64,000 bases of DNA from Waterburya sp. (GCA_965217895.1 CBDCJV010000001.1:1-64000), one strand, 5' to 3'. Counted from the stretch's first letter, positions 13,670-39,717 are shown. The notes: generated by a model from the sequence alone, not told the origin. Numbers and translations: made by a program.

Positions 13670-14824
13670 CTATACAAAAGCAAAATTAGAATTATTGGAA
13701 GACGTAGAGTTAGAGGATTGCATTTTAAGTAAACACTGGGTAATAAGCTCTATATTTACTTGCTCTGTTATTTCAGCTTTACCGATACCAGTGGGCAGGA
13801 TAAATCTAACTTTGCCATTTTTGACCTTTTTATCTAAGGCTATTGTCTCCAAAATTCTTTCGATTTCCAGAGTCTTGGGTATTGAAGTTGGTAGACCAAC
13901 TTTTTCAATAAGAGCCAGTTGCCTTTGGGCTGCCGTTCTATTCCACCAACCAGAGGCAACCGCGATTTCTCCAGCAGCTATCATTCCTAATGCCACTGCT
14001 TCACCGTGAGTATATTGACGATAATTAGTTATGCTTTCAATAGCATGACCAACTGTATGTCCGTAATTTAGAAGAATTCGCAAACCAAAATCAGATTCTT
14101 TTTCATCGCGAACAACAATGTCTGCCTTAGCTTGACAAGAAAGAGTGAGAATAAGTTTTAATAATTGCGGTTGAATCGTCTTCTGTTGTAGGCTCTCAGC
14201 AGTTTCAAGTTCCTTGAATAAATCAGCATCCCAAATTACGCCGTATTTAATAACTTCGGCTAATCCAGAGCGAAATTCCCTGGATGGTAGTGTCGATAAT
14301 ACGTTGCGATCGACAATTACCAAGTTGGGCTGGTAAAAAGTGCCGATGAGGTTTTTGCCTTGAGGATGATTTACGCCAGTTTTTCCACCTATGGCAGAAT
14401 CTACCATACTCAGGAGACTAGTGGGAATCTGCACCAAACTTATGCCTCTCAACCAAGTAGATGCTGCAAATCCAGCTAAATCTCCAACTACGCCACCACC
14501 AAGAGCAATAATAGTTGAAGAACGTTCAAGGCGGTGTTCTAAAGCTGCATTGTAAATTTTCTGAATGGAAGAAAAGGTTTTAAATTGTTCTCCTGCATCT
14601 ATGAGAAGACTAGATACCTGAAATCCAGATTTTTCTAATGATTCAACAACTCGTTGACCATAATATTGAAATATTTCTGGATTAGATACAATTAAAACCT
14701 TTCGTTTTAAATCGCGAAACTGAATAAAATCAGTAACTAATAATTCTCCGATTGTATCTATACCATTTTCCGAAAAAATCACCTTATAAGGTTGATGGGG
14801 TAAATTGACGTGTACTATTTGCAT
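13670..14824 (-). CDS. aroB: 3-dehydroquinate synthase
   Basis: [55 protein letters not shown]. Confidence 0.95.
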
Positions 14825-14873
14825 GGGGTTAGCCTCGCTTTATCTGTTGCTAAGTTTGCACTCTAATTGATAA

Positions 14874-15350
14874 TCAATTAGAGTGTTTGAGAATTTTGGG
14901 TTGTCTGAGATGATCGACTAAAGCATGAAGTGCTAAAAGATAACTATTGTGTTTGAAACCGCTAATTTGCCCAATAGCTACAGCAGAAATGAAGGAGTCA
15001 GAGCGATATGCTTCACGCTTGTAAATGTTAGTAAGATGGACTTCAACCACGGGAAGCTTAATGGCAGAGATCGCGTCTCTTATGGCGATGCTCGTATGTG
15101 TATACGCTCCAGCATTGAGAATGATACCTTTGCAGAGGTTGCTACTTTGGTGAATAAAGTTGATTAAAGCTCCTTCGGAGTTAGATTGAAAAGAAATAAC
15201 TTCGACATCCAAAGCTTTTCCTTCCGACTCTAATAACTTGTTTATTTCATCTAAAGTCAAAGTTCCATATATATCTGGCTCTCTTTGACCTAATAAATTG
15301 AGATTGGGTCCGTGAAAAACACAGATTTTTAAAGACTGAGAGTTATTCAC
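14874..15350 (-). CDS. aroQ: Type II 3-dehydroquinate dehydratase
   Basis: HGPNLNLLGQREPDIYG, NAGAYTHTS, EVHLTN; start taken at GTG 15350 to avoid overlap (longest ORF starts at 15425). Confidence 0.93.
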   Translation of the reverse strand: MNNSQSLKICVFHGPNLNLLGQREPDIYGTLTLDEINKLLESEGKALDVEVISFQSNSEGALINFIHQSSNLCKGIILNAGAYTHTSIAIRDAISAIKLPVVEVHLTNIYKREAYRSDSFISAVAIGQISGFKHNSYLLALHALVDHLRQPKILKHSN

Positions 15351-15381
15351 TTTTATTTGTTTATCCGACTCAATTAATTTC

Positions 15382-15834
15382 TTAAGCAACTGAAGGATTA
15401 GCTGAAAAAGTTTGTATTGATTCAAAAGCTTTTTTCGCAGCCGTTAAATCATAAGCAAAGGGTGGTTTTAAAGGACGGTAATCCCGCTCGTGAGCAGGAC
15501 CATGCCGTAGTACGGCATTGACCATGACACAGGGTTGGGAACTAAAATTGATGGCACCATGTGGAATGCCAGGAGGGATTTTTACTACTGTAGGCTGCTG
15601 TTCGTTCAGACCAAGATAGTGATAATGTCGATTCTGTAAAACTACTAGTACAAAACTGCCTTGCACTACTAAAAGCTGATCGCTCTGAAAGCTATGTACA
15701 AATAGATTATCAATCGTTTTCGGTCTGATTTTTACCAGCATTGTCTCGTGACTTGTTTGAGAGGAGTAAAATTTTACTCTTCCTTTTGTATTTGCTGCCA
15801 GAGGACAAACTTCGATTTTGTTAATTAAGCTCAT
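15382..15834 (-). CDS. Cupin-fold protein (RmlC/dTDP-epimerase-like)
   Basis: FVH..Q.DQLLVVQG and VKIPPGIPHG cupin motifs. Confidence 0.7.
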   Translation of the reverse strand: MSLINKIEVCPLAANTKGRVKFYSSQTSHETMLVKIRPKTIDNLFVHSFQSDQLLVVQGSFVLVVLQNRHYHYLGLNEQQPTVVKIPPGIPHGAINFSSQPCVMVNAVLRHGPAHERDYRPLKPPFAYDLTAAKKAFESIQTFSANPSVA

Positions 15835-15870
15835 ATTACTTACTAATTTTTTGACAAGCGGGATTTGGCT

Positions 15871-18303
15871 CTAAAGGCTTGAGTTCAACTTTGCTTCCGT
15901 CTGTGCTACTTGCTGCTTGACCGCGACTGCACTATCAGGATTTAAGGAAATTGAGTCAATTCCTGCTTCCACCAAGAAAGTAGCAAAATCAGGATGATCC
16001 GAAGGAGCTTGACCACAAATTCCTACCTTGCGATCTTGCTCATGAGCCGTTTTAATCAGGCGACTAATCATTCGCTTAACTGCTAAATCCCGCTCGTCAA
16101 ATAATTCTGCCAAATTTTCAGAATCTCTATCTATACCTAACACCAGCTGAGTCAAGTCATTAGTACCAATCGAAAAACCATCAAACCTTTGGGAAAATTC
16201 GGCGGCTAATTCCACATTTGAGGGAACTTCGCACATGACATAAACTTGTAAGCCATTTTCTCCACGCCGAAGTCCATTTTCCGCTAAAACTCGTAACACT
16301 TGATCGGCTTCTAGTAGCCGACGACAGAAGGGAATCATGATAATTACATTATCCAAGCCAATTACTTCTCGTACTCGTTTAATTGCTTGGCACTCTAAAT
16401 TAAATCCTTCTCGGTAGCGAGGACTATAATAACGAGAAGCTCCACGAAATCCTAACATGGGGTTAGCTTCGATTGGCTCGAATTGTCGTCCCCCAATTAG
16501 ATCGGCATATTCATTGGTTTTAAAATCGCTCATCCTCACAATTACTGGTTCGGGATATTGAGAGGCAGCAATTTTGGCAATCCCTTGAGCTAACCTATCG
16601 ACAAAATATGCCTTCTTATCTCTATATCCTGGCGTTATTTGCTGAATTTGCTGCTTGGCTTCTTTATCCTCGAGCCGCTCGAAATGAACTAAAGCCAGGG
16701 GATGAATTTTAATTACGTTATTGATGATAAATTCCATCCGCGCCAACCCAATACCGTTAACTGGTAACTTCCACCATTTAAAAGCTGCTGCGGGACTGGC
16801 AATATTCATCATGATTTGAGTCTTGGTTTCGGGGATTCCCTCTAAGCTGACCTCTAATTGCTCGTAGTCTAAAATGCCATTATAGATATGTCCTCGATCG
16901 CCTTCGGCAGTAGAAAGAGTAATTTGTTGATTTGGCTGTAATAATTTTGTGGCTCGACCAGTCCCCACAACCGCAGGAACTCCTAATTCGCGACTGATAA
17001 TAGCAGCATGACAAGTGCGACCTCCAGAATCAGTGATAATACCTGATGCCCGTTCCATTACAGGAACCCAATCAGGATCGGTCATTTTAGTTACTAAGAT
17101 CGCCCCATCTTCAAATCGATCGATCTGCGCTGCACTTTCTATTAAACAGACTTTGCCTGTAGCGATCGCTGCCCCTACACTCAATCCCGATATTATAGGT
17201 TTATCTGACTGCTTAAGCTGGTAAGTGTTAAGAACACCTTCTCCTTGGCGAGACTGAACGGTTTCTGGTCTAGCCTGAACAATAAATAACTCCCCTGTAA
17301 CACCATCTTTTGCCCACTCAATATCCATTGGTCGAGCATAATGAGATTCAATGCGATTTGCCCAGCGAGCTAACTGCAAAATTTCCGCATCTTCAAGAAT
17401 AAAAGATTGGCGTTCGCCAGAAGAGGTTTTCACCTGACGAGTTTGTCGATTGAGCCTATTAGCATAAATCAGCTTTTTTTCCTTAGAACCAGCAGTTTTC
17501 TCAATAATAGGTTGCAGTGACGATCGATCCAACAAAGGTTTGAAGATCCGAAATTCGTCTGGGTTGACAGATCCCTGAACCACATTTTCCCCCAATCCCC
17601 ATGCACCTGTAATCAAAATAATGTTATCGAATCCAGTTTCTGGATCGATGGAAAACATCACCCCCGCACTAGCTAAGTCCGATCTAACCATCTTCTGAAT
17701 CCCGATCGATAAAGCTACTTCTAAATGGTCAAAGCCTTTAGTATTTCGGTAGCTAATAGCACGATCTGTAAACAAAGAAGCATAGCACTTACGACAAGCT
17801 TCTAAAATTTCGGCAGTTCCACGAACATTGAGATAAGATTCCTGTTGACCAGCAAAGCTGGCATCGGGTAAATCTTCTGCTGTAGCACTACTTCTGACTG
17901 CAACGTCTACTCGATCGGTATTGTGAAAACGGCACAATTCCTCGTAAGCATCAGTAATTTGAGCTTGAACGGCCTCTGGGATAGGAGATTGGTAAAAGAG
18001 CTGGCGAATACAGTTTCCTGCTTGTTCTAGGCTAATATTTTCTTGTTCTAGACCTGTGAGATAGAAACGAATTTTTTTAGTCAGGTTATCTGATTTGAGG
18101 TAATCTCGATAGGCATCTACCGTAATCGCAAAACCATGGGGAACTTGAATACCTTCTTTTTCGAGAGTCTGTATTAGTTCTCCCAAAGAAGCATTTTTTC
18201 CACCAACCAAGGGAATGTCTTGAAGATTTAGGCTAGTAAAAGAACGAGTGTAGACATTGGTATTGAGGGTTTGAAGATGAAGATTGGCTGTTGTGATGTA
18301 CAT
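15871..18303 (-). CDS. ppsA: Phosphoenolpyruvate synthase
   Basis: VGGKNASLGE, RSSATAEDLPDASFAGQQ, GGRTCHAAII, EANPMLGFRGA, SIGTNDLTQ, ICGQAPSD. Confidence 0.96.
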   Translation of the reverse strand: MYITTANLHLQTLNTNVYTRSFTSLNLQDIPLVGGKNASLGELIQTLEKEGIQVPHGFAITVDAYRDYLKSDNLTKKIRFYLTGLEQENISLEQAGNCIRQLFYQSPIPEAVQAQITDAYEELCRFHNTDRVDVAVRSSATAEDLPDASFAGQQESYLNVRGTAEILEACRKCYASLFTDRAISYRNTKGFDHLEVALSIGIQKMVRSDLASAGVMFSIDPETGFDNIILITGAWGLGENVVQGSVNPDEFRIFKPLLDRSSLQPIIEKTAGSKEKKLIYANRLNRQTRQVKTSSGERQSFILEDAEILQLARWANRIESHYARPMDIEWAKDGVTGELFIVQARPETVQSRQGEGVLNTYQLKQSDKPIISGLSVGAAIATGKVCLIESAAQIDRFEDGAILVTKMTDPDWVPVMERASGIITDSGGRTCHAAIISRELGVPAVVGTGRATKLLQPNQQITLSTAEGDRGHIYNGILDYEQLEVSLEGIPETKTQIMMNIASPAAAFKWWKLPVNGIGLARMEFIINNVIKIHPLALVHFERLEDKEAKQQIQQITPGYRDKKAYFVDRLAQGIAKIAASQYPEPVIVRMSDFKTNEYADLIGGRQFEPIEANPMLGFRGASRYYSPRYREGFNLECQAIKRVREVIGLDNVIIMIPFCRRLLEADQVLRVLAENGLRRGENGLQVYVMCEVPSNVELAAEFSQRFDGFSIGTNDLTQLVLGIDRDSENLAELFDERDLAVKRMISRLIKTAHEQDRKVGICGQAPSDHPDFATFLVEAGIDSISLNPDSAVAVKQQVAQTEAKLNSSL

Positions 18304-18415: not shown

Positions 18416-18994
18416 TCAATCCCCAACTTTTACCGCCTCAATCGCACTAATCGGAGAATGGGTATAAATAACTTTCGTGAGCTTAAAGCCAGCTTTAGCT
18501 AGAAGTTGCCGATATTTAGCTTCACGGCGATCGCGACCACCAGTCATTAAAAATAAGGTCAAATCGAGCCACTCCCTAGAAGTCGATCGCCGATCGTCGG
18601 CTGTAGAAGAGGGAATTGCCGTTTCTAGAAGCAAAAGTTTACCTCGCCCTGCCATCGCCTGATGGCAGTTTTTGAGAATACTCAAGGTGCGATCGCTGTT
18701 CCAGTTGTAGATAATGTTTTTCATGATGTAAACATCACCATCATCTGGTATCGGTTCTGAAAGGATCTCTCCCTCGCATTTACGGCGATCTGCTATATTT
18801 TTGGCATGGAGTAGAGGTCTTACTGCTGCCCTGGGGGAAAAAGCGCAATTACGAAGAATGCTCTTAATCACTGAGTTTACTTTGAAAATCTCGCCAATAA
18901 ACAGATTGTGTTCGTTGTCAACGATTTGGTTTATGGGTGAGAAATCATAGCTGACAAGTATTGCAGATACTGAAGATGAGGTAGATGTAAACAT
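18416..18994 (-). CDS. Truncated or degenerate SAM-dependent O-methyltransferase
   Basis: C-terminal DVYIMKNIIYNW...GKLLLLE...DLTLFLMTGGRDR OMT motifs; motif I reads VDNEHN instead of VDxGGG; AGGAG RBS at 19006-19010 supports ATG 18994. Confidence 0.7.
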   Translation of the reverse strand: MFTSTSSSVSAILVSYDFSPINQIVDNEHNLFIGEIFKVNSVIKSILRNCAFSPRAAVRPLLHAKNIADRRKCEGEILSEPIPDDGDVYIMKNIIYNWNSDRTLSILKNCHQAMAGRGKLLLLETAIPSSTADDRRSTSREWLDLTLFLMTGGRDRREAKYRQLLAKAGFKLTKVIYTHSPISAIEAVKVGD

Positions 18995-19013: not shown

Positions 19014-19601
19014 CTAACTACGAAGATAGAGATCTTCAACTCGTTGACGAATCGCTAGCATATTGGCTGGTACATCATGACTCAAAATATGTTCGACTAA
19101 CGCCATGGGGAAAATGCGCTTAGGACAAATAGTAAAGTCATAAATTAGCTCGATTGCAGCTTTCCCATCAGCTAAATTCTGCGGTTCTAATCGCCAGTAG
19201 CCAGACAAGGCTTTCATATCTCCCTCAATTTGTTGGTAATGAATTTCGTGGGGAAACTTTTCTTCTACATTAAATAGCGAACGAGCAGAAAAGCTCATGC
19301 CCATAAAATTTTTGGTTCGTACCTGTTCTATTTGGACATCTTCAGTTGAAAGTTGTAACCGTCTGCTTTCAATTAAATTGGGCAGGAACTCGGCACAAGC
19401 TTCATAGTCTGTGAGAACTTGCCAAACTTGGTCTAATGAAGAGGGAATCAGAATTTTTGCCAAGACTCGTCGCTGTCTTCCTTCTAACTGTTCGACTTTG
19501 ATCGCGACATTGGTTTGAGAGACTGAATTGGAATCAGTTGGCAAATCACCTATGGTTGTAGAAGTGTTTAATTCTTGTTTGAGGTTGTATGTATTACTCA
19601 T
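19014..19601 (-). CDS. SRPBCC/START (polyketide cyclase/COQ10-like) protein
   Basis: VWQVLTDYE..AEFLPNL, EGDMKALSGYWRL. Confidence 0.85.
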   Translation of the reverse strand: MSNTYNLKQELNTSTTIGDLPTDSNSVSQTNVAIKVEQLEGRQRRVLAKILIPSSLDQVWQVLTDYEACAEFLPNLIESRRLQLSTEDVQIEQVRTKNFMGMSFSARSLFNVEEKFPHEIHYQQIEGDMKALSGYWRLEPQNLADGKAAIELIYDFTICPKRIFPMALVEHILSHDVPANMLAIRQRVEDLYLRS

Positions 19602-19727: not shown

Positions 19728-20834
19728 TTAACGTGACACAGTGCTGGCAACTGTGTGTTGGTTAGAGTTAACAGTGCTGGTAGATAAACCAAATTTGGAA
19801 GACGGGCGATCGATAGCCTGGCTAATGATCTCTATTTCCTGCATCAACATTTGATATTGGTTTGGCGTTAGAGACTGAGGACCGTCTGAGAGAGCTTTAG
19901 CAGGATTGGGATGAACTTCTATCATTAAAGAATCTGCACCAGCAGCGATCGCCGCCTTTGCCATCACGGGAACGAACTCAGCTTTACCCGTACCATGACT
20001 GGGATCGATCATAATTGGTAAGTGAGTCAGCGATCGCAAGACGGGAATAGCTGAAATATCAAGGATATTTCTGGTATATTGTCGGTCAAAAGTACGAATT
20101 CCCCGTTCACACAGAATCACGTTAGGGTTGCCTGCTGCCAGAATATACTCGGCAGACATGAGCCAATCTTTAATTGTGGCAGACATACCTCGCTTAAGTA
20201 GAACAGGCTTGTCTTGTGCTCCTACTTTTTTCAGTAGGGAGAAATTTTGCATATTACGCGCACCGATCTGGATGATGTCTGCAACCTCAGCCACTTTTTC
20301 AAGATCGTCTGAATCCATAAGTTCAGTCACAATACCCAAACCCGTAGCCTCACGAGCTGCTGCCAAAAGTTTTAAGGCACTCTCCCCATGTCCTTGAAAA
20401 GAGTAAGGTGAAGTACGGGGTTTGTAAGCTCCGCCGCGTAAGAACTTAGCACCAGCAGCTTTTGCTCGCTGTGCGGTTTCGATAATCATTGATTCGTTTT
20501 CTACCGAACAAGGTCCAGCCACAAAAACTACGGGGCAGTTCTCACCAAAAGCGACAAATTCATTGGGCGTTGAGACAAATACCTCACTGGGTTCTCCATG
20601 ACGGAATTCTCGACTAGCTCGTTTAAAGGGCTTATCTATCGACAAAACCTGTTCAATAAAAGGGCTTAGCTGTTGGATTTGTCGGGAATTAAGAGCTTCC
20701 GTATCGCCAATCAATCCAATTACGGTATTATGTTTGCCGACTATTTTTTCTGGTGTAATGCTCTGGCTTTGTAGTTCTTGATTGACTCTTTCAATTTCAG
20801 AGGCAGGAGTGCCTTGTTTCATAATTACGATCAT
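19728..20834 (-). CDS. aroF: DAHP synthase (type I-beta with N-terminal regulatory domain)
   Basis: [49 protein letters not shown]. Confidence 0.95.
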
Positions 20835-20909: not shown

Positions 20910-21992
20910 TTACCCTTTTTGGATAAACATTTTTGTTTGATACATCCAGTAATAAATTGAGGAAAATAGGACAAATATAAACACAGAAGAGTAGATTAAA
21001 GTAGCGTTAAGAGGAATAAGGAGGAAGGAACTGATTAGTTCAGTCAAGGCAAGTCCAATCAGTATCCTGACAATGGTTTTTCGCTTCAATAAACTGCACA
21101 GTATCGCACCTATAGGCGCACCGACTACAACCACAGGTACTGCTGCTAGCCAATAACCAATTATTGGCTCGACAAAGTCACCTATGACATATTTATTGAG
21201 AACAAATCCAGCTACAGCATTAATAGCCATCAAAATGACCGAGGTCGAAGTGCTAATCTTTTCGCACATGCCAAACAAAAGCACTAAGATAGAAAAACCA
21301 AAAATGTCCATACCGCTGCCTACCATACCGCTGACGATTCCTCCCCAAAGTCCTGCTACTAGGGATACAATTCGTTCTCGATTTCCCCAAAATGAGATAG
21401 CTAATTTTGGTCTTCTTTTTGTTTGATTTAAAGCGAACAAAACGACAGCAAAGCTACTAACCATCGTCGTAAAAGAAATTTTGATTACATCCGAAGGCAA
21501 AACAGGTGCTAAAAAGACCGAACCTAAGATGATACCGAAAACACCTCCAAGACTTGCCCAACGGATGAACTGCCATTCGACCTTAGTACCCATTGCCACG
21601 ATGGTAACTGAAGCCGCGCTCATACCGACACTTTGAATGGCTAAAGAAAACACCTTCGCATCATGTGGAGAAACGTGAAGCACCTTGGTAAAAACTGGAA
21701 AGGCTACTGCTCCCCCTCCCATGCTTGTGCCACCAGCCACTATAGAGCCAAAAACCATAGTTACGGCAGCCTCCCAGTTAGCAATCAAATTAGAAAATGC
21801 TCGACTAGGACCCGTTGTAATTAGCCATACAGTCCATACCGTTAGAGCGACTAAAACGCTAACACGAATAAAGTGTTGAGCAAACAAAGTCTTGGCGACA
21901 AGGTGAAAAATGTAAGTTAATTGGCTCTGGCTGTTTATTTTGCTTTTGGTTATTCGCCGAGCTTGTTTTTTCTGGAGCATAGTCATTCTCAC
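20910..21992 (-). CDS. TauE/SafE-family permease
   Basis: GSIVAGGTSMGGGAVAFP, SLAIQSVGM, PVVVVGAPIG; many transmembrane segments. Confidence 0.8.
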   Translation of the reverse strand: MRMTMLQKKQARRITKSKINSQSQLTYIFHLVAKTLFAQHFIRVSVLVALTVWTVWLITTGPSRAFSNLIANWEAAVTMVFGSIVAGGTSMGGGAVAFPVFTKVLHVSPHDAKVFSLAIQSVGMSAASVTIVAMGTKVEWQFIRWASLGGVFGIILGSVFLAPVLPSDVIKISFTTMVSSFAVVLFALNQTKRRPKLAISFWGNRERIVSLVAGLWGGIVSGMVGSGMDIFGFSILVLLFGMCEKISTSTSVILMAINAVAGFVLNKYVIGDFVEPIIGYWLAAVPVVVVGAPIGAILCSLLKRKTIVRILIGLALTELISSFLLIPLNATLIYSSVFIFVLFSSIYYWMYQTKMFIQKG

Positions 21993-22397: not shown

Positions 22398-22946
22398 TTA
22401 AAATAATTTTTGGCAAAAATAGCTTTCAGGAAACTTTTCTGTAATCATCATGGTCAGTTTTTTTTGAGAGAACACACAATAGGTGCGAAAAAACAAATTT
22501 TCTTCGGGGTTAATAGAAAAATAATCCGACAATTCGTTAGCGGGCTCTTTGCCAGAATCGATGATTTCTTTGTAGGTTTCAACTTTTTGCTCCGACCAGA
22601 GCTTGCCGATTGGCGTCTTGCTGTTCAATAATTTATCGCTAAATTGCTGCTCCAGGTTGTCAACAAAAATCCGTGAATTGGCATAGATAAAATTACGGCA
22701 GCTATTTTTTCCTTGAAGCAAAACTTCTCTGGCGAGAACTTTTCCTTCTGTATCTGATTTGATATTAGGTAATCTAGCCTTCATCTGTCCTAAATATTCT
22801 GATAGCTTAACCAATCGAATTGGCTCAGATAAGTAAGTTTCTAAAAGGCGTGTAATCGAACCATTAGTTCTCAACAAAATCTTCTGAAAATCACCTAATT
22901 CAGATGCTTCTGCATAAGTAGTAGGTATTTGTAAATCGCTTTTCAC
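22398..22946 (-). CDS. Chorismate pyruvate-lyase (4-hydroxybenzoate synthase, DUF98/Rv2949c-like; Bmp6 role)
   Basis: LLRTNGSITRLLE, REVLLQG, YANSRI, PIGKLW, ETYKEI, RTY, ITEKFP; GTG start with AGAGGA RBS. Confidence 0.85.
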   Translation of the reverse strand: MKSDLQIPTTYAEASELGDFQKILLRTNGSITRLLETYLSEPIRLVKLSEYLGQMKARLPNIKSDTEGKVLAREVLLQGKNSCRNFIYANSRIFVDNLEQQFSDKLLNSKTPIGKLWSEQKVETYKEIIDSGKEPANELSDYFSINPEENLFFRTYCVFSQKKLTMMITEKFPESYFCQKLF

Positions 22947-30159: not shown

Positions 30160-31293
30160 TTAATTAAGCTGAGAACGAAATCTTTTAATGCTGATGGTCA
30201 GCAGGACGACGGCAAAAATCGCTAGGGCGATCGCATTTGGTAAAATTGCCTGTAGACCGACACCTTTAAGAATCAGGCTACGATTGATTGCCACATAATG
30301 ACGCAGGGGATCGAAAAAAGATAAAATCCGAAACACGTAAGGCATACTTTCAGTTGGCGCGATCGCTCCTGAAAGTTGAAGAATGGGAACGTTAAAAAAG
30401 AAAGAAGTCAAAATTACCTGTTGTTGGGTACGGCATATAGTAGCGAGTAACAGACCGAGACCGATACAGACAAAAACATAAAGTCCCGACATTATTAAAA
30501 ATAAGCCAAAATTACCGCGAAACGGGATGCGAAATACCACAGCAGACAAACCAGCAGCTAGCAGCACATCACCCATCAACAAAACAAATAGCGGCACTAT
30601 TTTAGCTAGCAGAATTTCCCCTTCTGCCGCAGGCGTCATTAGCAGTTGTTCGAGAGTACCAACGTCTTTTTCGCGGATTGAAGTAATCGAAGACACTAAA
30701 GAACCAGTTAGGGTTAAAACCGTACCAATAACGCCAGTCACAAAGTACCAGCTACTAATCAAACCAGGATTATAGAGAAATCTGACTTGCGATTGCACCA
30801 ACGGCATAGGGCATTCTGTCTTTTCGCAACTCAGAGTTTGACCGTATTGCCTGACAATTTGGTCGATATATCCCTTAGCAATGCCAGCCGTATTAGCATC
30901 GACACCGTCAATAATTATCTGAACGGCTGCGGTTTTGGCTGAAGCTAAATCGCGGTCAAATTCGGGCGGAATAACCAAACCTACTGTAATCTCTCCCGTA
31001 CTGACCTGTCGCTTGAGGGTTTCGCGGTCGCTAGGAGCGGTTTCAACTTGAAAAATTTGATTTTCGGTTAATGCCGAAACTAATTCCCGACTTTTACTAC
31101 TGTTAGTGTAGTCCAATACTCCCAAATTAATGCGATCGACATCGGGACTGAGAGCCAAGCCAAAAATTAATAATTGAATTGTTGGTGGAAAAATCAACAG
31201 AAAAATTAGTTGTTTGTTACGCAAAATTTGTTGGGTTTCTTTGCGAATCAAACTCCAAAAGCGACTTTCCCAAATGCGACGCAAAATGTTCAT
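30160..31293 (-). CDS. ABC-2 type transporter permease (YbhR-like)
   Basis: REKDVGTLEQLLMTP, DGVDANTA, YNPGL. Confidence 0.92.
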   Translation of the reverse strand: MNILRRIWESRFWSLIRKETQQILRNKQLIFLLIFPPTIQLLIFGLALSPDVDRINLGVLDYTNSSKSRELVSALTENQIFQVETAPSDRETLKRQVSTGEITVGLVIPPEFDRDLASAKTAAVQIIIDGVDANTAGIAKGYIDQIVRQYGQTLSCEKTECPMPLVQSQVRFLYNPGLISSWYFVTGVIGTVLTLTGSLVSSITSIREKDVGTLEQLLMTPAAEGEILLAKIVPLFVLLMGDVLLAAGLSAVVFRIPFRGNFGLFLIMSGLYVFVCIGLGLLLATICRTQQQVILTSFFFNVPILQLSGAIAPTESMPYVFRILSFFDPLRHYVAINRSLILKGVGLQAILPNAIALAIFAVVLLTISIKRFRSQLN

Positions 31294-31335
31294 AGCAATT
31301 TTTTTTAATAGTAATTATTAATTTCAAAAATTTAT

Positions 31336-31484
31336 CCTAAATCCGATTGATAGAAATTATGTTCGCGACCGAGCAAAAACTTCTACAAGTCCCCCAAGTT
31401 TGACGAGCGACCCCGCGGATAGGGAACGCGCGAGGGAGATTTAGGGGGCGATACAAAAGTAACCCATACGAACAGGATTTAGTA
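31336..31484. repeat. MITE-like element with a nested 33-bp hairpin element
   Basis: Ends match 4236-4316 inverted; contains a CCCCC..GGGGG unit and GACGAGCGACCCCGCGGATAGGGAACGCGCGAG (31402-31434). Confidence 0.7.
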
Positions 31485-32594
31485 TCAGTCGTCGAACTGC
31501 ATTCGACGCAGATTACGAGTAGCAGCAATCGCGATCGTCAATCCGAGTAGAGCTACGGTCGCTGGAACATACCAAAATCCAGTCCATCCAGTCCCTCTAA
31601 CAAAAGCATCGCGGGTGACGAGGATATAGTAACGGGCGGGAATGATATTAGAAATAAGCGACAGCGGAAAGGGAATATTTTCCAGACGATAAATAAAACC
31701 AGAAAGTAATAAAGCAGTTAAAAAACCCGCAATCGCCGTACCTTGGACGGCAGCAGTTTGATTGCTAGCGCGAGTTCCCACTAACAAACCAAAAGAAACG
31801 CTGGCAATGAGATAAGTCACAGTGCCGACGATTAAGAGAGTTGGTTCTACCTGCAAACGGAGTCCGAATAAGATAACGCTAACGCCAATAACGATCGCCG
31901 CTTCAGCCAGTGCTACTAACACATAAGCCAACCCTTTACCCAACAACCACTCTACAGCACTGAGAGCGGAGGCATAAACTTGGATAATCGTGCCTTGTTC
32001 TTTTTCTCGTACCATGGAAATTGCCGTTAGCATCGAAGGAAAAACCCATAAAATCACCCCATAGATCCCGGGAACTATATAAAGAGATTCTTTTCTACCA
32101 GGATTAAACCAGAGTCGCGACTCAGTCACCACTTCTGCTGGCAAGGAAGGAGATGCAGTAGATAACGTACCGATAAAAAAGCTAGTCGTGGCGCGGATAT
32201 TGCTTTGAATAATCCTGGCATTATTTACATCCGTACCATCTACCAGTGCCTGAACGTTAACTGGTTTTTGAGCTTTTATCTGGCGAGAAAAATCGGGGGG
32301 AATAACCACGACAACTTTGGCAACTCCGCGATCAAGTGCCGTTACGGGAGATGTACCTACTGTCGGCGCGGGAACGAATTGATTGGTGGCATAAAGTCTT
32401 GCCACATAGCTGCGACTGAGGGAGCTATTGTCAAAATCTTGAATGCTCAAAGGAATATTTTGGGCTTCTAGACGAATAGCATAGCCAAAGATCAACAGCA
32501 CGCCTACAGGCAAAATCAACGCCAAAGCCACGGTGAGGCGATCGCGCCTAAACTGATTTAATTCTTTGATAAATTGAGCTAAGACTTTGTTCAT
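31485..32594 (-). CDS. ABC-2 type transporter permease (YbhS-like)
   Basis: WFNPG, VREKEQGT, LSGFIY..ENIP. Confidence 0.92.
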   Translation of the reverse strand: MNKVLAQFIKELNQFRRDRLTVALALILPVGVLLIFGYAIRLEAQNIPLSIQDFDNSSLSRSYVARLYATNQFVPAPTVGTSPVTALDRGVAKVVVVIPPDFSRQIKAQKPVNVQALVDGTDVNNARIIQSNIRATTSFFIGTLSTASPSLPAEVVTESRLWFNPGRKESLYIVPGIYGVILWVFPSMLTAISMVREKEQGTIIQVYASALSAVEWLLGKGLAYVLVALAEAAIVIGVSVILFGLRLQVEPTLLIVGTVTYLIASVSFGLLVGTRASNQTAAVQGTAIAGFLTALLLSGFIYRLENIPFPLSLISNIIPARYYILVTRDAFVRGTGWTGFWYVPATVALLGLTIAIAATRNLRRMQFDD

Positions 32595-32610
32595 GATTGC
32601 CTACTGAAAC

Positions 32611-34596
32611 TTATTGTTTTGCCGATCTTTGGACGATACTGATAAAGGCATCTTCTAGAGAAAAAGGAATGGCTCGTTCTGAATGAATATCTAGGTGATG
32701 CTCTACTAAACTTTGCTTTAACTGAGATAATTCTCGTTCTGGGTGTTCCAGCACCACATGGAGGCGATCGCCAAAAATCGAGACTTGCCAGGACTCTAGT
32801 TGGGTTTTGAGTAAGTCCGAAGCTTTTTGAGTATCCGACAGCACCATCTCGATCAACTGTCCTGGCTGTTGGGCTTTTATTTGACTGGGAGATCCCTGAG
32901 CGACAATTTCTCCTGCCACCATAAAACCCATGCGATTGCAGTTTTCGGCTTCTTCTAAGTAATGGGTAGTCACCAGTATTGCCGTTCCCTCACGGGCAAA
33001 ATCGCGAATTAACCGCCAAAATTGCCGTCGCGCCAAAGGATCGACTCCAGAAGTGGGTTCGTCTAAAAATAAGATTTCTGGTTCGTGCATCACCGAGGCA
33101 CCAAAAGCAACGCGCTGCTTCCAGCCGCCGGGAAGACTTCTGGTGATGGTGTTTTCTCTGCCTACCAAACCACAGGTTGTTAACACCCAGTTAATTTTTT
33201 CTTGACGTAACTTACGGGGAATGCCATATACACCACAGTAAAATTCGAGATTTTGTTTGATAGAAAGATCGTCATACAGCGTAAATTTCTGACTCATATA
33301 GCCGAGGCGCGATCGCACTTGCGAACTGTGCAAATTTTCTGTCTGACCTGCCAAAGTCATGTTACCCGCACTAGACGGCAGCAAACCACACAGCATTTTA
33401 ATTGTGGTCGTCTTCCCCGCTCCATTTGCCCCTAGCAAACCGTAAATTTCGCCATATTTTACTTCTATATCGATCCCTTTTACCGCTCGAAAATCTCCAA
33501 AGGTTTTTTGTAAATTAGACGCACCGATGGCAGTTTTACGAGCGACAGAAGTTTCTGTTTCTATGCCATCTTTACTGCCACCGCGATATCGAGGAAAAGG
33601 AATATAGGTCGGATCCGAACCTTGTTGTCTCAGGCGGGTCACAAAGACATTTTCTAAGGTGGGTTCCTCTGCTTCAAGACTTGCTAATTTTAGTTGCTGT
33701 TGAGATAATATTTGGCGAATCTGGCTGCTGCCTTGTGAGACATCGGTAACTAAAACGTCCAGGCGATCGCCAAAGGATTGCAGATCGACAATAGTAGCTC
33801 CTTCTCGCGCTTCCTTAGAAGCAGATAAGTTCTCTTCGACAGCAGGCAAATTTTCGGCTCTTACTTCAAGTCGATGTAGACCTAGACTGTCTCTTAATTG
33901 AGTTAGAGTACCGAGTTGTTGAATTTCACCCTGATAGATCAAAGCAATGCTATGACAGCGTTCTGCTTCATCTAAATAGGGAGTCGCTACGACAATAGTT
34001 ACTCCTTCGGCAGCTACTGTAGCTAGTAAATCCCAAAACTCCCGACGGGACACGGGATCTACCCCAGTAGTCGGTTCGTCGAGCAATAAAATTTGCGGTT
34101 GGGCAATTAAAGCACAACAGAGGGCTAGTTTTTGCTTCATTCCTCCCGAAAGCTGACCTGCCAGACGATGAGGAATGCCCTCCAAGTCAAATAAGCCTAG
34201 CAGTCTGGCTTTTTGTTCGCGATATGTAGATTTTGCCAACTGACGCAGGCCAGCACTATAACGTAAATTTTCTTCAATACTCAAATCTTGATAGAGTGAA
34301 AACTTTTGCGTCAGATAGCCAATTTCCAATCTTGCTTGGCTGGGGGTTTTGCCCAAAACTTCAATCTTTCCTGCAGTTGCTTTCATCACTCCTGCTAAAA
34401 TCTGAAAAGTGGTGGTTTTCCCCGCGCCATCGGGTCCGATTAAGCCAAAAATTTCTCCCTGACAAACGCTAAAATCAATGCCTTTTACCGCCACCAGCTT
34501 ACCGTAATGCTTGTGTAGCCCTTCGATCTTAATTGCCACGTTATCGGCGATCGCCGCTTGGTTAGAGTCGGGAGCGAGTGTCGAGTTATGATTCAT
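32611..34596 (-). CDS. ABC transporter ATP-binding protein with two ATPase domains (YbhF-like)
   Basis: GPDGAGKT and GANGAGKT Walker A motifs, LSGGMKQ and LPGGWKQ signatures, two DEPT motifs. Confidence 0.94.
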   Translation of the reverse strand: MNHNSTLAPDSNQAAIADNVAIKIEGLHKHYGKLVAVKGIDFSVCQGEIFGLIGPDGAGKTTTFQILAGVMKATAGKIEVLGKTPSQARLEIGYLTQKFSLYQDLSIEENLRYSAGLRQLAKSTYREQKARLLGLFDLEGIPHRLAGQLSGGMKQKLALCCALIAQPQILLLDEPTTGVDPVSRREFWDLLATVAAEGVTIVVATPYLDEAERCHSIALIYQGEIQQLGTLTQLRDSLGLHRLEVRAENLPAVEENLSASKEAREGATIVDLQSFGDRLDVLVTDVSQGSSQIRQILSQQQLKLASLEAEEPTLENVFVTRLRQQGSDPTYIPFPRYRGGSKDGIETETSVARKTAIGASNLQKTFGDFRAVKGIDIEVKYGEIYGLLGANGAGKTTTIKMLCGLLPSSAGNMTLAGQTENLHSSQVRSRLGYMSQKFTLYDDLSIKQNLEFYCGVYGIPRKLRQEKINWVLTTCGLVGRENTITRSLPGGWKQRVAFGASVMHEPEILFLDEPTSGVDPLARRQFWRLIRDFAREGTAILVTTHYLEEAENCNRMGFMVAGEIVAQGSPSQIKAQQPGQLIEMVLSDTQKASDLLKTQLESWQVSIFGDRLHVVLEHPERELSQLKQSLVEHHLDIHSERAIPFSLEDAFISIVQRSAKQ

Positions 34597-35872
34597 TATG
34601 TTCGCCCTCTTCTGGTTGGGTAATTATTTCCCCATCAGCGGGCATACCTGGTTTGGCGAATCCATTGGGGTTATCGATATTGAGTCTCAAGCCAAACACC
34701 TGGTCTACGCGATCGCTGCGGAAATAAATGTTTTCTGGGGTAAAGGAAGCTTCGGCATCAACTTTGGTTACACTGGCATCTAAGGGGCGATCGGGAGCAG
34801 AATCTAAAAATATTTGGGCTGGTTGTCCGACTCGCACGTTGCCAATTTCTCCTTCAGGAAGATAACCCCGCAAATATAAATTGTTGAGATTGACAATAGT
34901 CATTAAATTCGTCCCACTGGCAACTACTTCACCTGGTTCGGTAGTTCTTGCCAGCACTACCCCATTGATGGGGCTGACAATTTGAAGATCGTCTAACTTG
35001 GCGACAATTTCGGCTTTTGCTGCCTTGGCATTTTCGACATCTGCCTTATCAGCCTCTACCTGTGCATTACTTTGAGCTAGTTGTTTGTTTAAACCTGTTA
35101 GCTTGGCTTGGTTAATTTGAGGATTAAAACTGCTGGTTTTGGCTTGAGTCAGTTCGGCTAAAAAGACATTTACTTGTCTTCGAGCGGCAACAACAGCAGC
35201 TTGACTGGCTCTGAGGGTTGCTTTAGAAGTATCAAAGTTAGTTTGGCTCTGGTCGAACCGCTGTTGGGTAATCACTCCTTCAGCAATTAGAGGCTCGTAG
35301 CGGTTGAGATCGGCTCGAGCCAGACGTTTTTGGGCTTGAGCCTGTTTGGCTTCTGACTGGGCTTGCGATAGTTGCGCTCGTGCGGCGGCTACTTTGGCTT
35401 GGGCGCGAGCGATCTCTCCTACAGCATCGTCGCTAGACTGGCGGAGACTGAGTTGTGCTTCATCTATTTGACTGTTAATTACTTCAATTTCTAGTTGTGC
35501 TTGATTTACATCTTGCCGTGCGGCTTGAAGACGAGCTTCTGCACCTTTTAGTTGAGCTTGAAGTTCGGCATCGTCAAGCTGGGCAATAACCTGACCCGAA
35601 GCTACAAGATCGCCTTCTCTGACTGCGATGTTTTCAATTTTTCCTCCTAACTTTGCTCCGACATCGGTTTCGTGACCTTCAATTCTGCCGCTTAACTCTA
35701 GTGAGTTATCTTTAGTTTGTCCCGCAAGATAATAGCGAATGCCAATGCCGATACCGAATAATAAGAAAACTATAGGCACTACAAAGCGCATGACACCCAC
35801 GAACTTTGATAATTTCTCATTCTTGTCGTTATCGACCTTTTTTTTTTGGTCTTGAAAAGCTAATCCAGACAT
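34586..35872 (-). CDS. HlyD-family membrane fusion protein (YbhG-like)
   Basis: N-terminal transmembrane helix, long coiled coil, SPINGVV, AEASFTPENIY, KPGMPADG. Confidence 0.92.
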   Translation of the reverse strand: MSGLAFQDQKKKVDNDKNEKLSKFVGVMRFVVPIVFLLFGIGIGIRYYLAGQTKDNSLELSGRIEGHETDVGAKLGGKIENIAVREGDLVASGQVIAQLDDAELQAQLKGAEARLQAARQDVNQAQLEIEVINSQIDEAQLSLRQSSDDAVGEIARAQAKVAAARAQLSQAQSEAKQAQAQKRLARADLNRYEPLIAEGVITQQRFDQSQTNFDTSKATLRASQAAVVAARRQVNVFLAELTQAKTSSFNPQINQAKLTGLNKQLAQSNAQVEADKADVENAKAAKAEIVAKLDDLQIVSPINGVVLARTTEPGEVVASGTNLMTIVNLNNLYLRGYLPEGEIGNVRVGQPAQIFLDSAPDRPLDASVTKVDAEASFTPENIYFRSDRVDQVFGLRLNIDNPNGFAKPGMPADGEIITQPEEGEHNES

Positions 35873-36056: not shown

Positions 36057-36383
36057 TTAGCAAGCTTCTGTTTCGATCCAGCGCTCGATTAAATTGTATA
36101 AAGCAGAACGCATCGTAATTCCCTTTTGAATACAGAAGATTTTAAAGCGAGTTTTAAGACATTTGGAAATATATCCTTTGAGATCTTCATCTTCTTCTTT
36201 AACTGGCTCTAAGATAAAATCATTAGTAGGAGCATCAGCTTGTATCCATTTTTTGATCGATTCCTCTAAAACTTTACTCATGGTTAAATTTTTTTGGGTA
36301 CATCGAACCTTAAATTGAAATTTTAAGGAACTCGGCATTGAGACCTTGATAACTACGCGTTTTTCTCTATCTTCTTGATTCAC
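36057..36383 (-). CDS. Tandem ribbon-helix-helix (ParG-like) DNA-binding protein
   Basis: Internal duplication LKFQFKVRCTQKNLTMSKVLEESIKKWI / LKTRFKIFCIQKGITMRSALYNLIERWI. Confidence 0.7.
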   Translation of the reverse strand: MNQEDREKRVVIKVSMPSSLKFQFKVRCTQKNLTMSKVLEESIKKWIQADAPTNDFILEPVKEEDEDLKGYISKCLKTRFKIFCIQKGITMRSALYNLIERWIETEAC

Positions 36384-36612: not shown

Positions 36613-36712
36613 GCTGCCTGACCTTAGAAACTATAGGTTCAAGCCATAAATCTTGCTTGTGTTTATATAGTTTTCAAGCTCGATCCTAAAAAAGATTGAT
36701 AAAACAAACCTC

Positions 36713-38059
36713 ATGCTCGATCTCACCGTCAATCTAATTGACTTTTACAACACAACTGACATAACTATTCAACCTCCTACTTTAGGAATGTCATTAAAAG
36801 GTTCGTTAGCTATTCCCGGCGATAAATCTATTTCGCACCGTGCCCTAATGTTTGGTGCTCTAGCATTAGGAGAAACTCGAATTCGGGGATTATTATTAGG
36901 AGAAGATGTAATTAGTACCGCTAAATGTCTGCGTTCAGTAGGTGCAGAGATTTCCGATCTCACTGCCGAGGAAATTATGGTTACTGGTGGTTGGGAAAAA
37001 CTACAAGAGCCATTAGATCTTCTAAATGCTGGGAACTCAGGGACTACGATGCGTTTGATGTTAGGAATTTTAGCGGCTCAACCTAACTGTTTCTTTACCC
37101 TAAGTGGCGATCGCTCTTTACGTTCTCGTCCTATGTCTCGCGTAGTAAAACCCTTAACTCAAATGGGAGCGACAATTTGGGGCAGACAAAACAACAATTT
37201 AGCACCTTTGGCAATTAAAGGAAAAAAATTACGTCCCATTCACTATCATTCTCCTGTAGCTTCGGCTCAAGTCAAATCTTGTATTCTCTTAGCGGGATTG
37301 ATGAGCGAAGGAGCGACTACGATAACAGAACCAGCAAAATCTAGAGATCATAGCGAAAGAATGCTAAAAGCTTTTGGTGCGGATCTCCAAATCGACTCCG
37401 AAACTAACAGCGTTACTATAACTGGTGGTAAAGATTTACAAGGACAAGCGATTATAGTCCCTGGAGACATTAGTTCGGCAGCGTTTTGGTTAGTAGCTGC
37501 TTCTATTGTTCCTAATTCAAAACTAGTCTTGACCAATGTTGGGATTAACTCCACAAGAGCGGGGATTTTAGATGTTTTAAACCTCATGGGGGCAAATATT
37601 ACCCTAGAAAAAGAAAGAACTGTCGCAGGAGAACCAATTGCTGATTTGCGCGTTCGTTACAGTTCCCTAAATGGATGCGAAATAGCAGGAGAATTAACTG
37701 TGCGCTCAATTGATGAAATTCCCATTATTATCGTAGCTGCTGCTTTTGCTAAAGGAACAACGATTATTAAAGATGCTGCTGAGTTAAGGGTAAAAGAATG
37801 CGATCGCCTCTCAGTAATGGCTACTCAATTGAGTTATATGGGAGCAAAAATTACCGAATATCCCGATGGCATAGAAATTCAAGGCGGACATCCTCTATCA
37901 GGTGCAGAAGTAGCAAGTCATGACGACCATCGGATTGCCATGAGTTTGGCAGTAGCAGCTTTAGGGGCTTCAGGAAAAACTATGATCGAAGATGCTACCG
38001 CAGCCAATATTTCTTATCCTAGCTTTTTTGATAGTCTGCAACAAGTTTGTTATTCGTAG
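36713..38059 (+). CDS. aroA: EPSP synthase
   Basis: [56 protein letters not shown]. Confidence 0.96.
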
Positions 38060-38105
38060 GGGCAATCTACTATTTCACCTCTAAATTATTCAAAGGAAAA
38101 TAATC

Positions 38106-39194
38106 ATGGGTAGTACATTCGGACATTTATTTCGCATCACTAGCTTTGGTGAATCCCATGGCGGTGGCGTTGGTGTAGTCATTGATGGTTGTCCCCCGCA
38201 ACTTGAAATATCAGCAGCAGAAATTCAAGTAGAATTAGACCGCAGAAAACCAGGACAAAGTAAGATCACTACCCCCAGGAAAGAAAGTGATACCTGTGAA
38301 ATTATTTCTGGAGTTTTTGAAGGAAAAACTTTAGGAACACCAATTTCAATCTTGGTTAGAAACAAAGATGCTCGCTCGCAAGATTACAATGAGATGGCAG
38401 TAAAATATCGCCCTTCCCATGCTGATGCTACCTACGATGCTAAATACGGCATTCGTAATTGGCAAGGTGGTGGTCGTTCTTCGGCTAGAGAAACCATTGG
38501 CAGAGTCGCAGCAGGTGCGATCGCCAAAAAAATTCTTTACTTAGTAGCTGGGATTGAAATAGTTGCTTACGTTAAACGGATTAAAGATCTAGAAGCGGTA
38601 GTAGATAGTAGTATTGTTACTCTAGAACAAGTTGAAAGCAATATTGTTCGCTGTCCTAATGATGAATGTGCCGTAAAAATGATCGATGAGATCGATCGCG
38701 CCAGAAGAGATAAAGATTCTCTGGGTGGTGTAGTTGAATGTGTCGCCCGCAATGTCCCTCAAGGTTTAGGCGAACCAGTCTTCGATAAATTAGAGGCAGA
38801 TTTAGCCAAAGGTATGATGTCTTTACCTGCTACCAAAGGATTTGAAATTGGTTCGGGGTTTGCGGGAACAACCATGACAGGAAGCGAACACAACGACGAG
38901 TATTATCTTGATGAAAACGGCAAGACTCGCACAATAACCAATCGTTCGGGGGGAATCCAAGGAGGTATTGCTAACGGCGAAAATATTGTTATTCGGGCTG
39001 CTTTTAAACCCACCGCCACTATCGGTAAAGAACAGCATACCGTTACTAAATCAGGTGAATCAACAACTTTAGCTGCTAAAGGCAGACACGATCCTTGTGT
39101 ATTACCTAGAGCTGTTCCTATGGTTGAAGCTATGGTAGCTCTAGTCTTATGCGATCATCTGCTGCGCCATCATGCTCAATGTAAACTAATGTAG
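38106..39194 (+). CDS. aroC: Chorismate synthase
   Basis: [35 protein letters not shown]. Confidence 0.97.
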
Positions 39195-39204
39195 TTTTTA
39201 ACAT

Positions 39205-39717
39205 ATGGATAGACAACTAAGACAAAGCAACATTTATCTAATTGGAATGATGGGATCGGGAAAAACCACCGTTGGTAAGTTACTCGCCGAGAAATTAGAT
39301 TATTGTTTTTTTGATATCGACGTGGCAATTGAAAAATTAGCCCAAAAAACTATTACTGAGATTTTTGCTATAGAAGGAGAAGCAAGATTTCGCGAATTAG
39401 AAAGTCAAACTTTGAGAAAGATATCTACTTATCACCGAAGTGCGATCGCAACTGGTGGTGGAATCGTTCAAAGACCTGAAAACTGGAATTATCTTCGTAC
39501 TGGCTCGATCGTTTGGCTTGATGCTGACTTAAATTTACTCAATCGAAGACTAGCGGACGATAGCAGTAGACCTCTAGCCAATCAACTCGAATCATTATTA
39601 GCAACTCGCCGCTCTCTTTATGCCCAAGCCGATCTACATATCGCCATTAAGTCAGAACAAACTCCAGAAGATCTTGTCACTGAAATTATTGATTTACGCA
39701 CTCGAAGAGCTAGTTAA
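39205..39717 (+). CDS. aroK: Shikimate kinase
   Basis: GMMGSGKT, GEARFRELE, ATGGG, RPL. Confidence 0.94.
   Translation: MDRQLRQSNIYLIGMMGSGKTTVGKLLAEKLDYCFFDIDVAIEKLAQKTITEIFAIEGEARFRELESQTLRKISTYHRSAIATGGGIVQRPENWNYLRTGSIVWLDADLNLLNRRLADDSSRPLANQLESLLATRRSLYAQADLHIAIKSEQTPEDLVTEIIDLRTRRAS

Follow-up and report, generated by a model that had tools for sequence, protein, structure and literature searches.

The first 64 kb of the 86.9-kb contig C1 of Waterburya sp. (this whole stretch of 64,000 nucleotides is termed the window in the following; the genome of 5.29 Mb consists of two contigs, C1 and C2, and is 99.9% complete) carry at positions 13670 to 39717 a gene cluster that is very probably of the bmp type and would serve the formation of halophenols, most likely bromophenols, and of their dimers. 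Judged by homology and gene order, its core is a bmp5-bmp7-bmp6 triad, i.e. a flavin-dependent halogenase, a cytochrome P450 and a chorismate lyase. Every open reading frame (ORF) listed in an earlier note on this DNA was found at its place and strand and could be assigned to a family: aroB, aroQ, ppsA, aroF, aroA and aroC passed the curated NCBIfam cut-offs, while aroK, the protein resembling flavin-containing monooxygenases (FMO), the P450, the Rv2949c-like chorismate lyase, the TauE protein, the polyketide-cyclase/START protein, a Methyltransf_2 protein, an NB-ARC and WD40 protein, ABC-2 permeases, a twin ATPase, an HlyD protein and a ribbon-helix-helix (RHH) protein passed those of Pfam.

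The flavoenzyme (24564..26111, minus strand; 515 aa, starting as in its homologs with the ATG at 26111) is assigned as a Bmp5-type single-component flavin-dependent halogenase. It shares 77% identity with AQU14204.1, the flavin-dependent halogenase of Hormoscilla spongeliae SP4, and 75-77% with the proteins of H. spongeliae SP12, GUM202 and GUM034 (SP12 and GUM202 at 75%); altogether, five named H. spongeliae halogenases or their genome copies lie at 75-77%, and further close named homologs stem from Pleurocapsa, Xenococcaceae and Symploca, as would be expected of a cyanobacterial host, probably a Pleurocapsales-like one. A grouping with ordinary FMO or Baeyer-Villiger monooxygenases, which the earlier note had held to be decisive against a halogenase, was not recovered; in the tree, the protein falls together with hs_Bmp5 instead, and the bit scores are 380-492 for members representing the Bmp5-like group and at most 282 for other full-length relatives. 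Both Rossmann motifs are present (GAGPGG and GGGESG), and the structural model calculated from a 129-row alignment (pLDDT 93.7) adopts the class B FMO fold (TM 0.8 to AncFMO2/5), a fold also given for Bmp5 (PMC10306068). The same source describes a lysine for AetF (Lys258) and Bmp5 (Lys277); Lys270 of the window protein is common with hs_Bmp5, the AncFMO5 position being occupied by Val, and the residue aligned with Lys270 stands at position 277 in one unnamed representative of 47% identity.

The cytochrome P450 (23050..24507, minus strand) belongs to the Bmp7 family of coupling enzymes: its top match in the PDB is 9ms3, the "polybrominated aromatic compounds synthase" (Bmp7), with an E value of 1e-87 (next match, 1e-60), and the alignment to this solved structure covers the whole length. 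The enzyme is 57-58% identical to the Hormoscilla P450s (hs_Bmp7), contains the heme-thiolate motif FGIGPRRCLG and, like Bmp7, lacks the acid-alcohol pair of the I-helix. It is the sole P450 of this family in the host genome, in the congener G015 (an 82%-complete genome) and at the related loci L151 and L153. The Bmp6-like chorismate lyase (22398..22946, minus strand; PF01947) is 50-53% identical to the lyase of the Hormoscilla loci L007 and L008; it is distinct from the housekeeping lyase of cyanobacteria, which is encoded at C2:3632907. The locus L007 of Hormoscilla sp. GUM202 reads halogenase (75%), P450 (57%), second halogenase (67%), distant P450 and lyase (50%) and thereby reproduces the hs_bmp gene set published for GUM202 (bmp5, bmp7, second halogenase, extra P450, bmp6), whose host sponge yielded ten polybrominated diphenyl ethers (PBDEs) (PMC6520454). 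The three core genes of the window therefore map onto hs_bmp, and the Bmp5/6/7 likeness claimed in the earlier note was borne out for each of them.

The order FMO-P450-chorismate lyase-TauE-aroF is not a chance arrangement, since it recurs in G015 and at the loci L001-L003, L031, L151 and L153 (L150 matches G015:C12 in gene order and identities and was not treated as an independent case). Three other studies have runs that contain the arm from aroB to the halogenase (identity about 92-96%); in run X3, it lies on two contigs of 5.3 and 7.6 kb. Run X2, probably the source sample, was left out as independent support. All core and supply ORFs are intact, and seven genes are under purifying selection relative to G015 (dN/dS 0.12-0.29).

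Several observations weigh against an assignment of the triad as straightforward as this. Lys270 is retained in all 129 near-full-length rows of the alignment (the window protein, the SP4 protein and 127 representatives of 440-700 aa among 150 listed), down to approximately 30% identity and including algal proteins, and the sequences of the Lys270 alignments comprise no named gammaproteobacterial Bmp5. Sequence, profile and fold searches of the PDB were non-discriminating: ordinary FMOs were returned first, ancestral FMOs being the best, no Bmp5 was listed, and AetF was not among the rows shown. In 62 of 76 close flavoenzyme loci, the fetched flank contained no chorismate lyase (the lyase was present in 14 and together with a close P450 in eight). 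The P450, finally, lies outside the hs_Bmp7 clade, in a sister clade with a support of 0.99 (FastTree, 81 rows: the window protein, 12 locus proteins and 68 of 120 listed homologs), and differs from hs_Bmp7 at the I-helix (FLAAGTQLP versus FAGAGGGLP) and in other pocket-lining stretches.

As a consequence of its invariance, also in distant relatives, Lys270 was rejected as a diagnostic residue of Bmp5; orthology and gene context, not the lysine, carry the halogenase assignment. It might be argued that the flavoenzyme is an ordinary monooxygenase, converting e.g. 4-hydroxybenzoate to hydroquinone, with non-halogenated quinoid or biaryl compounds as products, because its best solved matches are ancestral FMOs and the lysine is common to a wide family of undefined function. 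This explanation is hardly credible in view of the 77% identity to the SP4 halogenase within the same gene neighborhood, the separate bit-score range of the Bmp5-like group and the tracking of halogenases by the TauE clade (see below). The loci devoid of a lyase indicate that the flavoenzyme family also serves other pathways. Among congeners, a close flavoenzyme was present in one of 36 (82%), and relatives of 32-34% in three.

Lysines of the Lys270 type are also found in eukaryotic proteins (Rhodomonas, Tetraselmis, Chromosphaera; rows P0271-P0420); the lysine-bearing family may represent a wide set of single-component halogenase candidates, or the role of the lysine may be more general. Many marine Bacteroidota, viz. 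Flavobacteriaceae among other heterotrophs (L033-L071), possess halogenase homologs of 55-60%, nearly all without a nearby match to lyase or P450; an Aquimarina locus (L051) has two halogenase copies followed by a TauE gene. In Crocosphaera (L009:8255-16625; L075:8082-13866), lyase, TauE, halogenase and FAD monooxygenase genes occur together with no P450, as a non-coupling variant; L009 additionally contains a two-component halogenase and a cupin.

For the P450, the position in the tree means that the window enzyme is not an orthologue of hs_Bmp7; its clade also holds one of the three P450s of Leptolyngbya SIO1D8 and, from both L002 and L031, the second P450 of the locus. Since it stems from a sister subclade, since Bmp7 itself is reported to yield both ethers and biphenyls (PMC7918430), since a Microbulbifer P450 gave the biphenyl (PMC10579414), and since the ambigol P450 pair is described to differ in C-C versus C-O preference, forming triphenyls together (PMC9214053), the linkage of the product is not predictable, and the product class (PBDE or biphenyl) cannot be read from this P450. 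An ether linkage appears as a nearly even chance, a biphenyl as a serious if lesser prospect, and another or a mixed linkage as rather doubtful. It is also conceivable that halophenols are made and the P450 does more than simple dimerization, i.e. that a third ring is added, another partner is coupled or iodinated or chlorinated phenols are preferred, so that the product would be neither a known hydroxylated brominated diphenyl ether (OH-BDE) nor a tetrabromobiphenyldiol. This would be in line with the grouping with second P450s, with the divided tasks of the ambigol enzymes, with the iodinated, multi-ring aryl ethers known from free-living cyanobacteria (PMC11596561) and with the composition of the halogenase gene: compared with G015 (window 25000-26111 versus L087:3317-4864), its DNA identity is 69-78% over the first 1050 nt, the 5' two-thirds, and 88-98% thereafter, which indicates a mosaic gene with a likely recombination breakpoint. 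Being the sole Bmp7-family P450 in the host, in G015 and at L151 and L153, however, the enzyme probably performs the first coupling, and a departure of this kind is considered unlikely.

On the bmp-type reading, the following pathway can be proposed from the characterized homologs. PpsA would provide extra phosphoenolpyruvate (PEP), and AroF, AroB, AroQ, the shared chromosomal AroE, AroK, AroA and AroC would raise the flux to chorismate, from which the Bmp6-like lyase would release 4-hydroxybenzoate. The Bmp5-type flavoenzyme would, with NADPH, O2 and halide, brominate and decarboxylate 4-hydroxybenzoate to 2,4-dibromophenol (and 2,4,6-tribromophenol), and the Bmp7-family P450 would join phenoxy radicals in pairs, giving a hydroxylated diphenyl ether, a biphenyldiol or both. 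Its electrons presumably come from host ferredoxin because bmp9 and bmp10 are missing from the window. The formation of a bromophenol is expected with great confidence, that of a coupled product with slightly less. As there is one halogenase, no Bmp12-like hydroxylase or sulfotransferase and a dead methyltransferase (see below), simple unmethylated, unsulfated dimers would be expected.

The supply genes proved to be additional copies, as the earlier note had supposed; the opposite case, that these aro genes are the only ones of the genome, does not apply, since aroF, aroB, aroQ, aroK, aroA, aroC and ppsA each have a second, scattered copy elsewhere. On the minus strand, aroB (3-dehydroquinate synthase, 13670..14824; TIGR01357 over cut-off) has a housekeeping copy of 58% at C2:4826563 and a syntenic copy of 84% in L151; aroQ (type II dehydroquinase, 14874..15425; TIGR01088 over cut-off) has a second copy of 53% on C2 and lies within long contigs in runs X3 and X5; ppsA (PEP synthase, 15871..18303; TIGR01418 over cut-off) is closer to the cluster-type copies (85-86% identity to five others) than to the housekeeping copy of its own genome (55%); and aroF (3-deoxy-D-arabino-heptulosonate 7-phosphate (DAHP) synthase, 19728..20834; NF009933 over cut-off) has a second copy of 72% on C2. 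On the plus strand, aroA-aroC-aroK (36713..39717; aroA and aroC by NCBIfam, aroK by Pfam) have their second copies at C2:2030303, C1:69017 and C2:2611039, respectively. A self-contained route from PEP to chorismate, as claimed in the earlier note, is not encoded: aroE is missing from the window, i.e. six of the seven shikimate steps are represented, and the single aroE of the genome is located at C2:2194460. Likewise, G061-G064 each have one aroE, located on another contig than the cluster, and none was found in the 82%-complete G015.

Similar modules are present in related clusters. The cluster of G064 comprises the triad, TauE, aroF, a sulfotransferase, ppsA, FtsX/ABC genes, aroA, aroC, aroK and aroB; that of G061 (Symploca SIO3C6) TauE, aroF, START, a relic methyltransferase, ppsA, TetR, HlyD/FtsX/ABC genes, aroA and aroC; and that of G015 TauE, aroF, three other genes, ppsA, an MFS gene and aroA, while L151 corresponds to the left arm of the window minus aroQ. 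In the trees, the cluster-type copies of aroA and ppsA from several genomes group separately from the housekeeping copies of their hosts, each gene in its own clade (support 1.0); together with the second copies of all these genes, this indicates that the supply module travels with the core. In the aroF tree, the cluster copies are separated from the C2 copy with a modest support of 0.79. More than one aroA match was obtained in only three of 39 congeners, two of which contain the triad; the third, G066, had no P450 match. In G061, the cluster aroA is the only aroA found. The cluster aroB of G064 (58% identity to that of the window) is no closer to the window gene than the other aroB copy of G064 (60%), so aroB may have been recruited twice. 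A second cluster-clade aroA of G015 (L100, G015:C144) adjoins a phosphoglycerate mutase gene, perhaps another PEP-supply arrangement.

The TauE/SafE-family membrane protein (20910..21992, minus strand; PF01925) belongs to a halogenase-associated clade and is a candidate halide importer or product exporter. A search of 301 genomes of the order with TauE alone yielded 22 loci besides the window in 19 genomes, the flanks of which were surveyed up to approximately 10 kb (76 of the 141 unassigned flanking ORFs were scanned against Pfam). Flavin halogenase-type genes were present in the flanks of 11 of the 22: eight with GxGxxG and WxWxIP motifs, the latter being the motif of two-component halogenases, and three in which TauE stands directly beside distant lysine-bearing FMO relatives. 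Of the remaining loci, three lie at polyketide synthase (PKS) genes of enediyne type (a label deduced from domain order and a UnbV match), seven are without a halogenase, and one contig was too short. Within the clade of the window TauE (support 0.98), a halogenase-motif gene was found at six of six independently found loci, which correspond to about four lineages because three are from one genus. Bmp5-like or related FMOs occurred in 10 of 19 TauE-positive versus eight of 281 TauE-negative genomes (Fisher p 2e-9, a value that is overstated because kin are not independent).

To our knowledge, the question of how halogenating cells obtain bromide is largely unanswered. Import of halide is the leading reading for TauE, since its partners differ in enzyme class and pathway and have the need for halide in common; it is nevertheless put forward as a possibility only. 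TauE could alternatively export an anionic product, a rival favored by the sulfotransferases of several related clusters. As regards transport of sulfite or sulfonate, the default of the TauE/SafE family, the assignment is a family match, and the scan of ORFs in the window revealed no gene for a sulfotransferase or for sulfonate metabolism. A gene for TauE is also reported for the brominated leptochelin cluster (PMC11240249). The protein is not essential, given that the fetched Hormoscilla loci are without it. TauE relatives of 56-59% were further seen near the end of gene sets for enediyne-type PKS and thioesterase (L193, L195, L202).

Two small genes complete the left arm. The START/polyketide-cyclase-fold protein (19014..19601, minus strand; PF03364), whose gene follows aroF or the chorismate lyase in L001, L002, L005, L031, L151, L160, L162 and L163, is a putative binder of hydrophobic product. 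The cupin (15382..15834, minus strand; weak FdtA Pfam match, E 0.0013) resembles a cyanobacterial family automatically named dTDP-4-dehydrorhamnose epimerase (Atlas neighbors) and has a 51% paralog on C2 and an 87% syntenic copy in L151.

The gene resembling an O-methyltransferase was indeed present as noted earlier, but a working enzyme can no longer be assumed: the ORF (18416..18994, minus strand; Methyltransf_2) is a relic of the C-terminal half that aligns to residues 169-344 of an intact genomic O-methyltransferase and has lost the N-terminal ~168 residues with the dimerization domain and the glycine-rich S-adenosylmethionine loop (VDVGGGNG to VD--NEHN). It was consequently rejected as the enzyme forming methoxylated brominated diphenyl ethers (methoxy-BDEs). 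Even shorter remnants exist in L002, L031, L096, L151 and L163, with in-frame stops in L002 and L096; as the gene has decayed in relatives too, its loss is old. Full-length methyltransferase ORFs occur in other related clusters (L001:11313-12056, L006:7950-9038, L052:7818-8906, L017:8849-9583) and are candidates for an O-methylation to methoxy-BDEs or bromoanisoles.

Between the two pathway halves lies a block (26530-36383) whose relation to the cluster is less clear. It consists of an NB-ARC-WD40 protein of the STAND type, encoded divergently from the halogenase (26530..30147, plus strand; Pfam NB-ARC and WD40; membership uncertain), an exporter composed of an HlyD adaptor, a twin-ATPase and two ABC-2 permeases (30160..35872, minus strand; Pfam/NCBIfam; membership plausible) and an RHH-domain protein (36057..36383, minus strand; PF21432; membership uncertain). 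The putative N-terminal helix-turn-helix of the NB-ARC protein, recognized by its sequence pattern, had no match in Pfam or NCBIfam. The regulators and the exporter had been regarded as parts of the cluster in the earlier note; family spread and neighbors do not show this membership. The NB-ARC-WD40 family was matched in 30 of 39 congeners (52-62%), similar exporters occur without the triad in seven of 38 other congeners (G015 not among them), and RHH homologs in seven of 300 other genomes, none of them beside cluster genes within 1.5 kb. There is an even chance that all three are unrelated cargo, which would be compatible with a bmp-type cluster. Cargo is favored by the arrangement in G064, G061 and G015, where ppsA is succeeded on its own strand by the aroA block and the genes between them include other transporters and none of these three, and by the related runs X3-X5, which cover the left arm and not the NB-ARC gene, missing cover being weak evidence. 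Conversely, nearly every related cluster has some exporter: one homologous to that of the window (45-65%) flanks the Nostoc triad (L005/L095), and the other clusters have a different HlyD/FtsX/ABC set (HlyD and/or FtsX-type genes in Hormoscilla, G061, G063 and G064). Moreover, G061 has one partial NB-ARC match of 40% beside aroC, and in the window the NB-ARC and halogenase genes diverge from a common intergenic region. A promoter scan of 25900-26800 remained at chance level (four found versus 3.9 expected).

Mobile elements border the cluster on both sides. At the left edge, an IS701-family insertion sequence (IS; 11829..13467, plus strand; NCBIfam IS701 over cut-off; inverted repeats 11829-11860 and 13436-13467) ends 200 bp from aroB and has a 99.9% identical copy on C2; past the right edge, transposase and integrase remnants (43518..46537; DUF4277, Phage_integrase and DDE matches) have perfect 17-nt inverted repeats at 44974 and 46537 and 99.9% copies on C2. 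Here, an integrase-family ORF (44060-44962) splits the DUF4277 transposase gene (43518-45487), with a second IS adjoining, and C2 has further copies of the 211-nt repeats (window 45693-45903) at six or more sites. The window regions at approximately 0.7-11.8 kb and 48.0-54.4 kb match congeners, mostly at 80-93%; in the five genomes searched, the left and right flanks map far apart, and a clean empty insertion site was not definable. The composition provided no transfer signal, GC and GC3 of the cluster differing little from the host, and the window contains no tRNA. The cluster is best explained as horizontally mobile. A location on a plasmid was rejected: C1 encodes pnp, ftsH, psb27, a His_biosynth-family gene and the only other aroC of the genome, and the plasmid collection held no close relative of the flavoenzyme (one 33% match). 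C1 is chromosomal and the cluster is inserted in the chromosome. Between the cluster and the right-hand remnants, wrbA, Rid, EamA and MarR genes (39790-42650) adjoin and could form a detoxification set; a 38-nt repeat occurs three times at 42002-42143 in the EamA-MarR intergenic region and probably represents MarR operators. A glucosylglycerol-phosphate synthase gene, found over cut-off, would fit a salt-tolerant host.

With a relic methyltransferase and insertion sequences on both sides, the cluster might also be a silent or decaying, recently inserted passenger, and a single-base loss upstream is reported to have silenced the Microbulbifer cluster (PMC10579414). Against this stand the intact core and supply ORFs, the low dN/dS values and the age of the methyltransferase loss, and such a state is regarded as very unlikely.

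A functional bmp-type cluster would be of interest in several respects. Marine organisms contain hydroxylated PBDEs and bromobiphenyls of natural origin; among cyanobacteria, the characterized producer is described as an uncultured sponge symbiont (PMC6520454). The present minimal cluster of one halogenase and one P450, in a 99.9%-complete two-contig genome, should lend itself to expression and assignment; its P450 represents a subclade of undefined C-O versus C-C preference, its TauE clade offers a specific candidate for bromide acquisition, and the cluster illustrates how a whole supply line of primary metabolism (PEP to chorismate, minus aroE) moves with a three-gene pathway. More tentatively, and with rather low confidence, a family of provisioned halophenol clusters in free-living cyanobacteria can be envisaged that combines a PEP synthase and shikimate genes of its own with bromide import by TauE and a distinct P450 linkage: if so, TauE would be a dedicated halide-uptake transporter common to unrelated flavin-halogenase pathways, the P450 subclade would give a dimer with a linkage differing from that of hs_Bmp7, and natural OH-BDEs or bromobiphenyls would in part originate from such free-living cyanobacteria. 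A parallel type of cluster was seen at L160:2855-17495, L161:5043-12480 and L162:8083-21009, with two distant Bmp7-family P450s (39-44%), a two-component halogenase and a sulfotransferase; L160 and L162 also have a tryptophanase/tyrosine phenol-lyase-like gene, aroF and START, with TauE in L160 and an anthranilate synthase in L162. These loci look like pathways that start with an aromatic amino acid and end with an aryl product that is halogenated, coupled and sulfated.

In comparison with known systems, the triad in free-living cyanobacteria is not new: bmp triads have been published for Hormoscilla, Symploca, Nodularia and Leptolyngbya genomes, as has the DAHP synthase gene that adjoins the triad of Microbulbifer (PMC10579414). 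In the literature consulted, with subscription papers mostly outside, no description was found of a PEP-to-chorismate module on bmp clusters, of the P450 subclade or of the link between TauE and halogenases; other papers may already note the aro genes. The closest relative is hs_bmp of Hormoscilla spongeliae (PMC6520454), which has the three core genes in the same order and an exporter nearby. The window differs by its P450 from the sister subclade and by the lack of an hs_bmp12-like hydroxylase, a second halogenase and a sulfotransferase; it is larger, as the earlier note had remarked of compact bmp5-7 loci, by TauE, START, ppsA and six aro genes; the fetched Hormoscilla flanks gave no match to any of them. 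The genes bp607-bp610 of Microbulbifer sp. RZ01 (PMC10579414) likewise combine halogenase, lyase and P450 with an adjacent DAHP synthase and a neighboring regulator, the product being 3,3',5,5'-tetrabromo-2,2'-biphenyldiol; according to that description, with which the comparison was made, the first shikimate step alone is duplicated there. With bmp1-10 of Pseudoalteromonas and Marinomonas (PMC7918430, PMC11610975), the cluster has the Bmp5/6/7 phenol branch in common, whereas the window scans show neither the pyrrole branch (bmp1-4, bmp8) nor the redox partners bmp9/bmp10. The ambigol (ab) cluster of Symphyonema bifilamentata/"Fischerella ambigua" 108b (PMC9214053, PMC8065813) represents another cyanobacterial halophenol coupling by P450s, but is described as biosynthetically unrelated to bmp and as leading to chlorinated triphenyls by means of two P450s; the single P450 of the window cluster is set apart from AB2/AB3 by the description of that pair. 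As regards precursor supply, the hapalindole/ambiguine/welwitindolinone clusters (PMC4236562) are comparable in that they contain paralogs of precursor genes (a DAHP synthase and five trp genes) with one step outside, a position that aroE takes in the present case; their product class is another, and it is the section from chorismate to tryptophan that is duplicated there, compared with that from PEP to chorismate in Waterburya sp.

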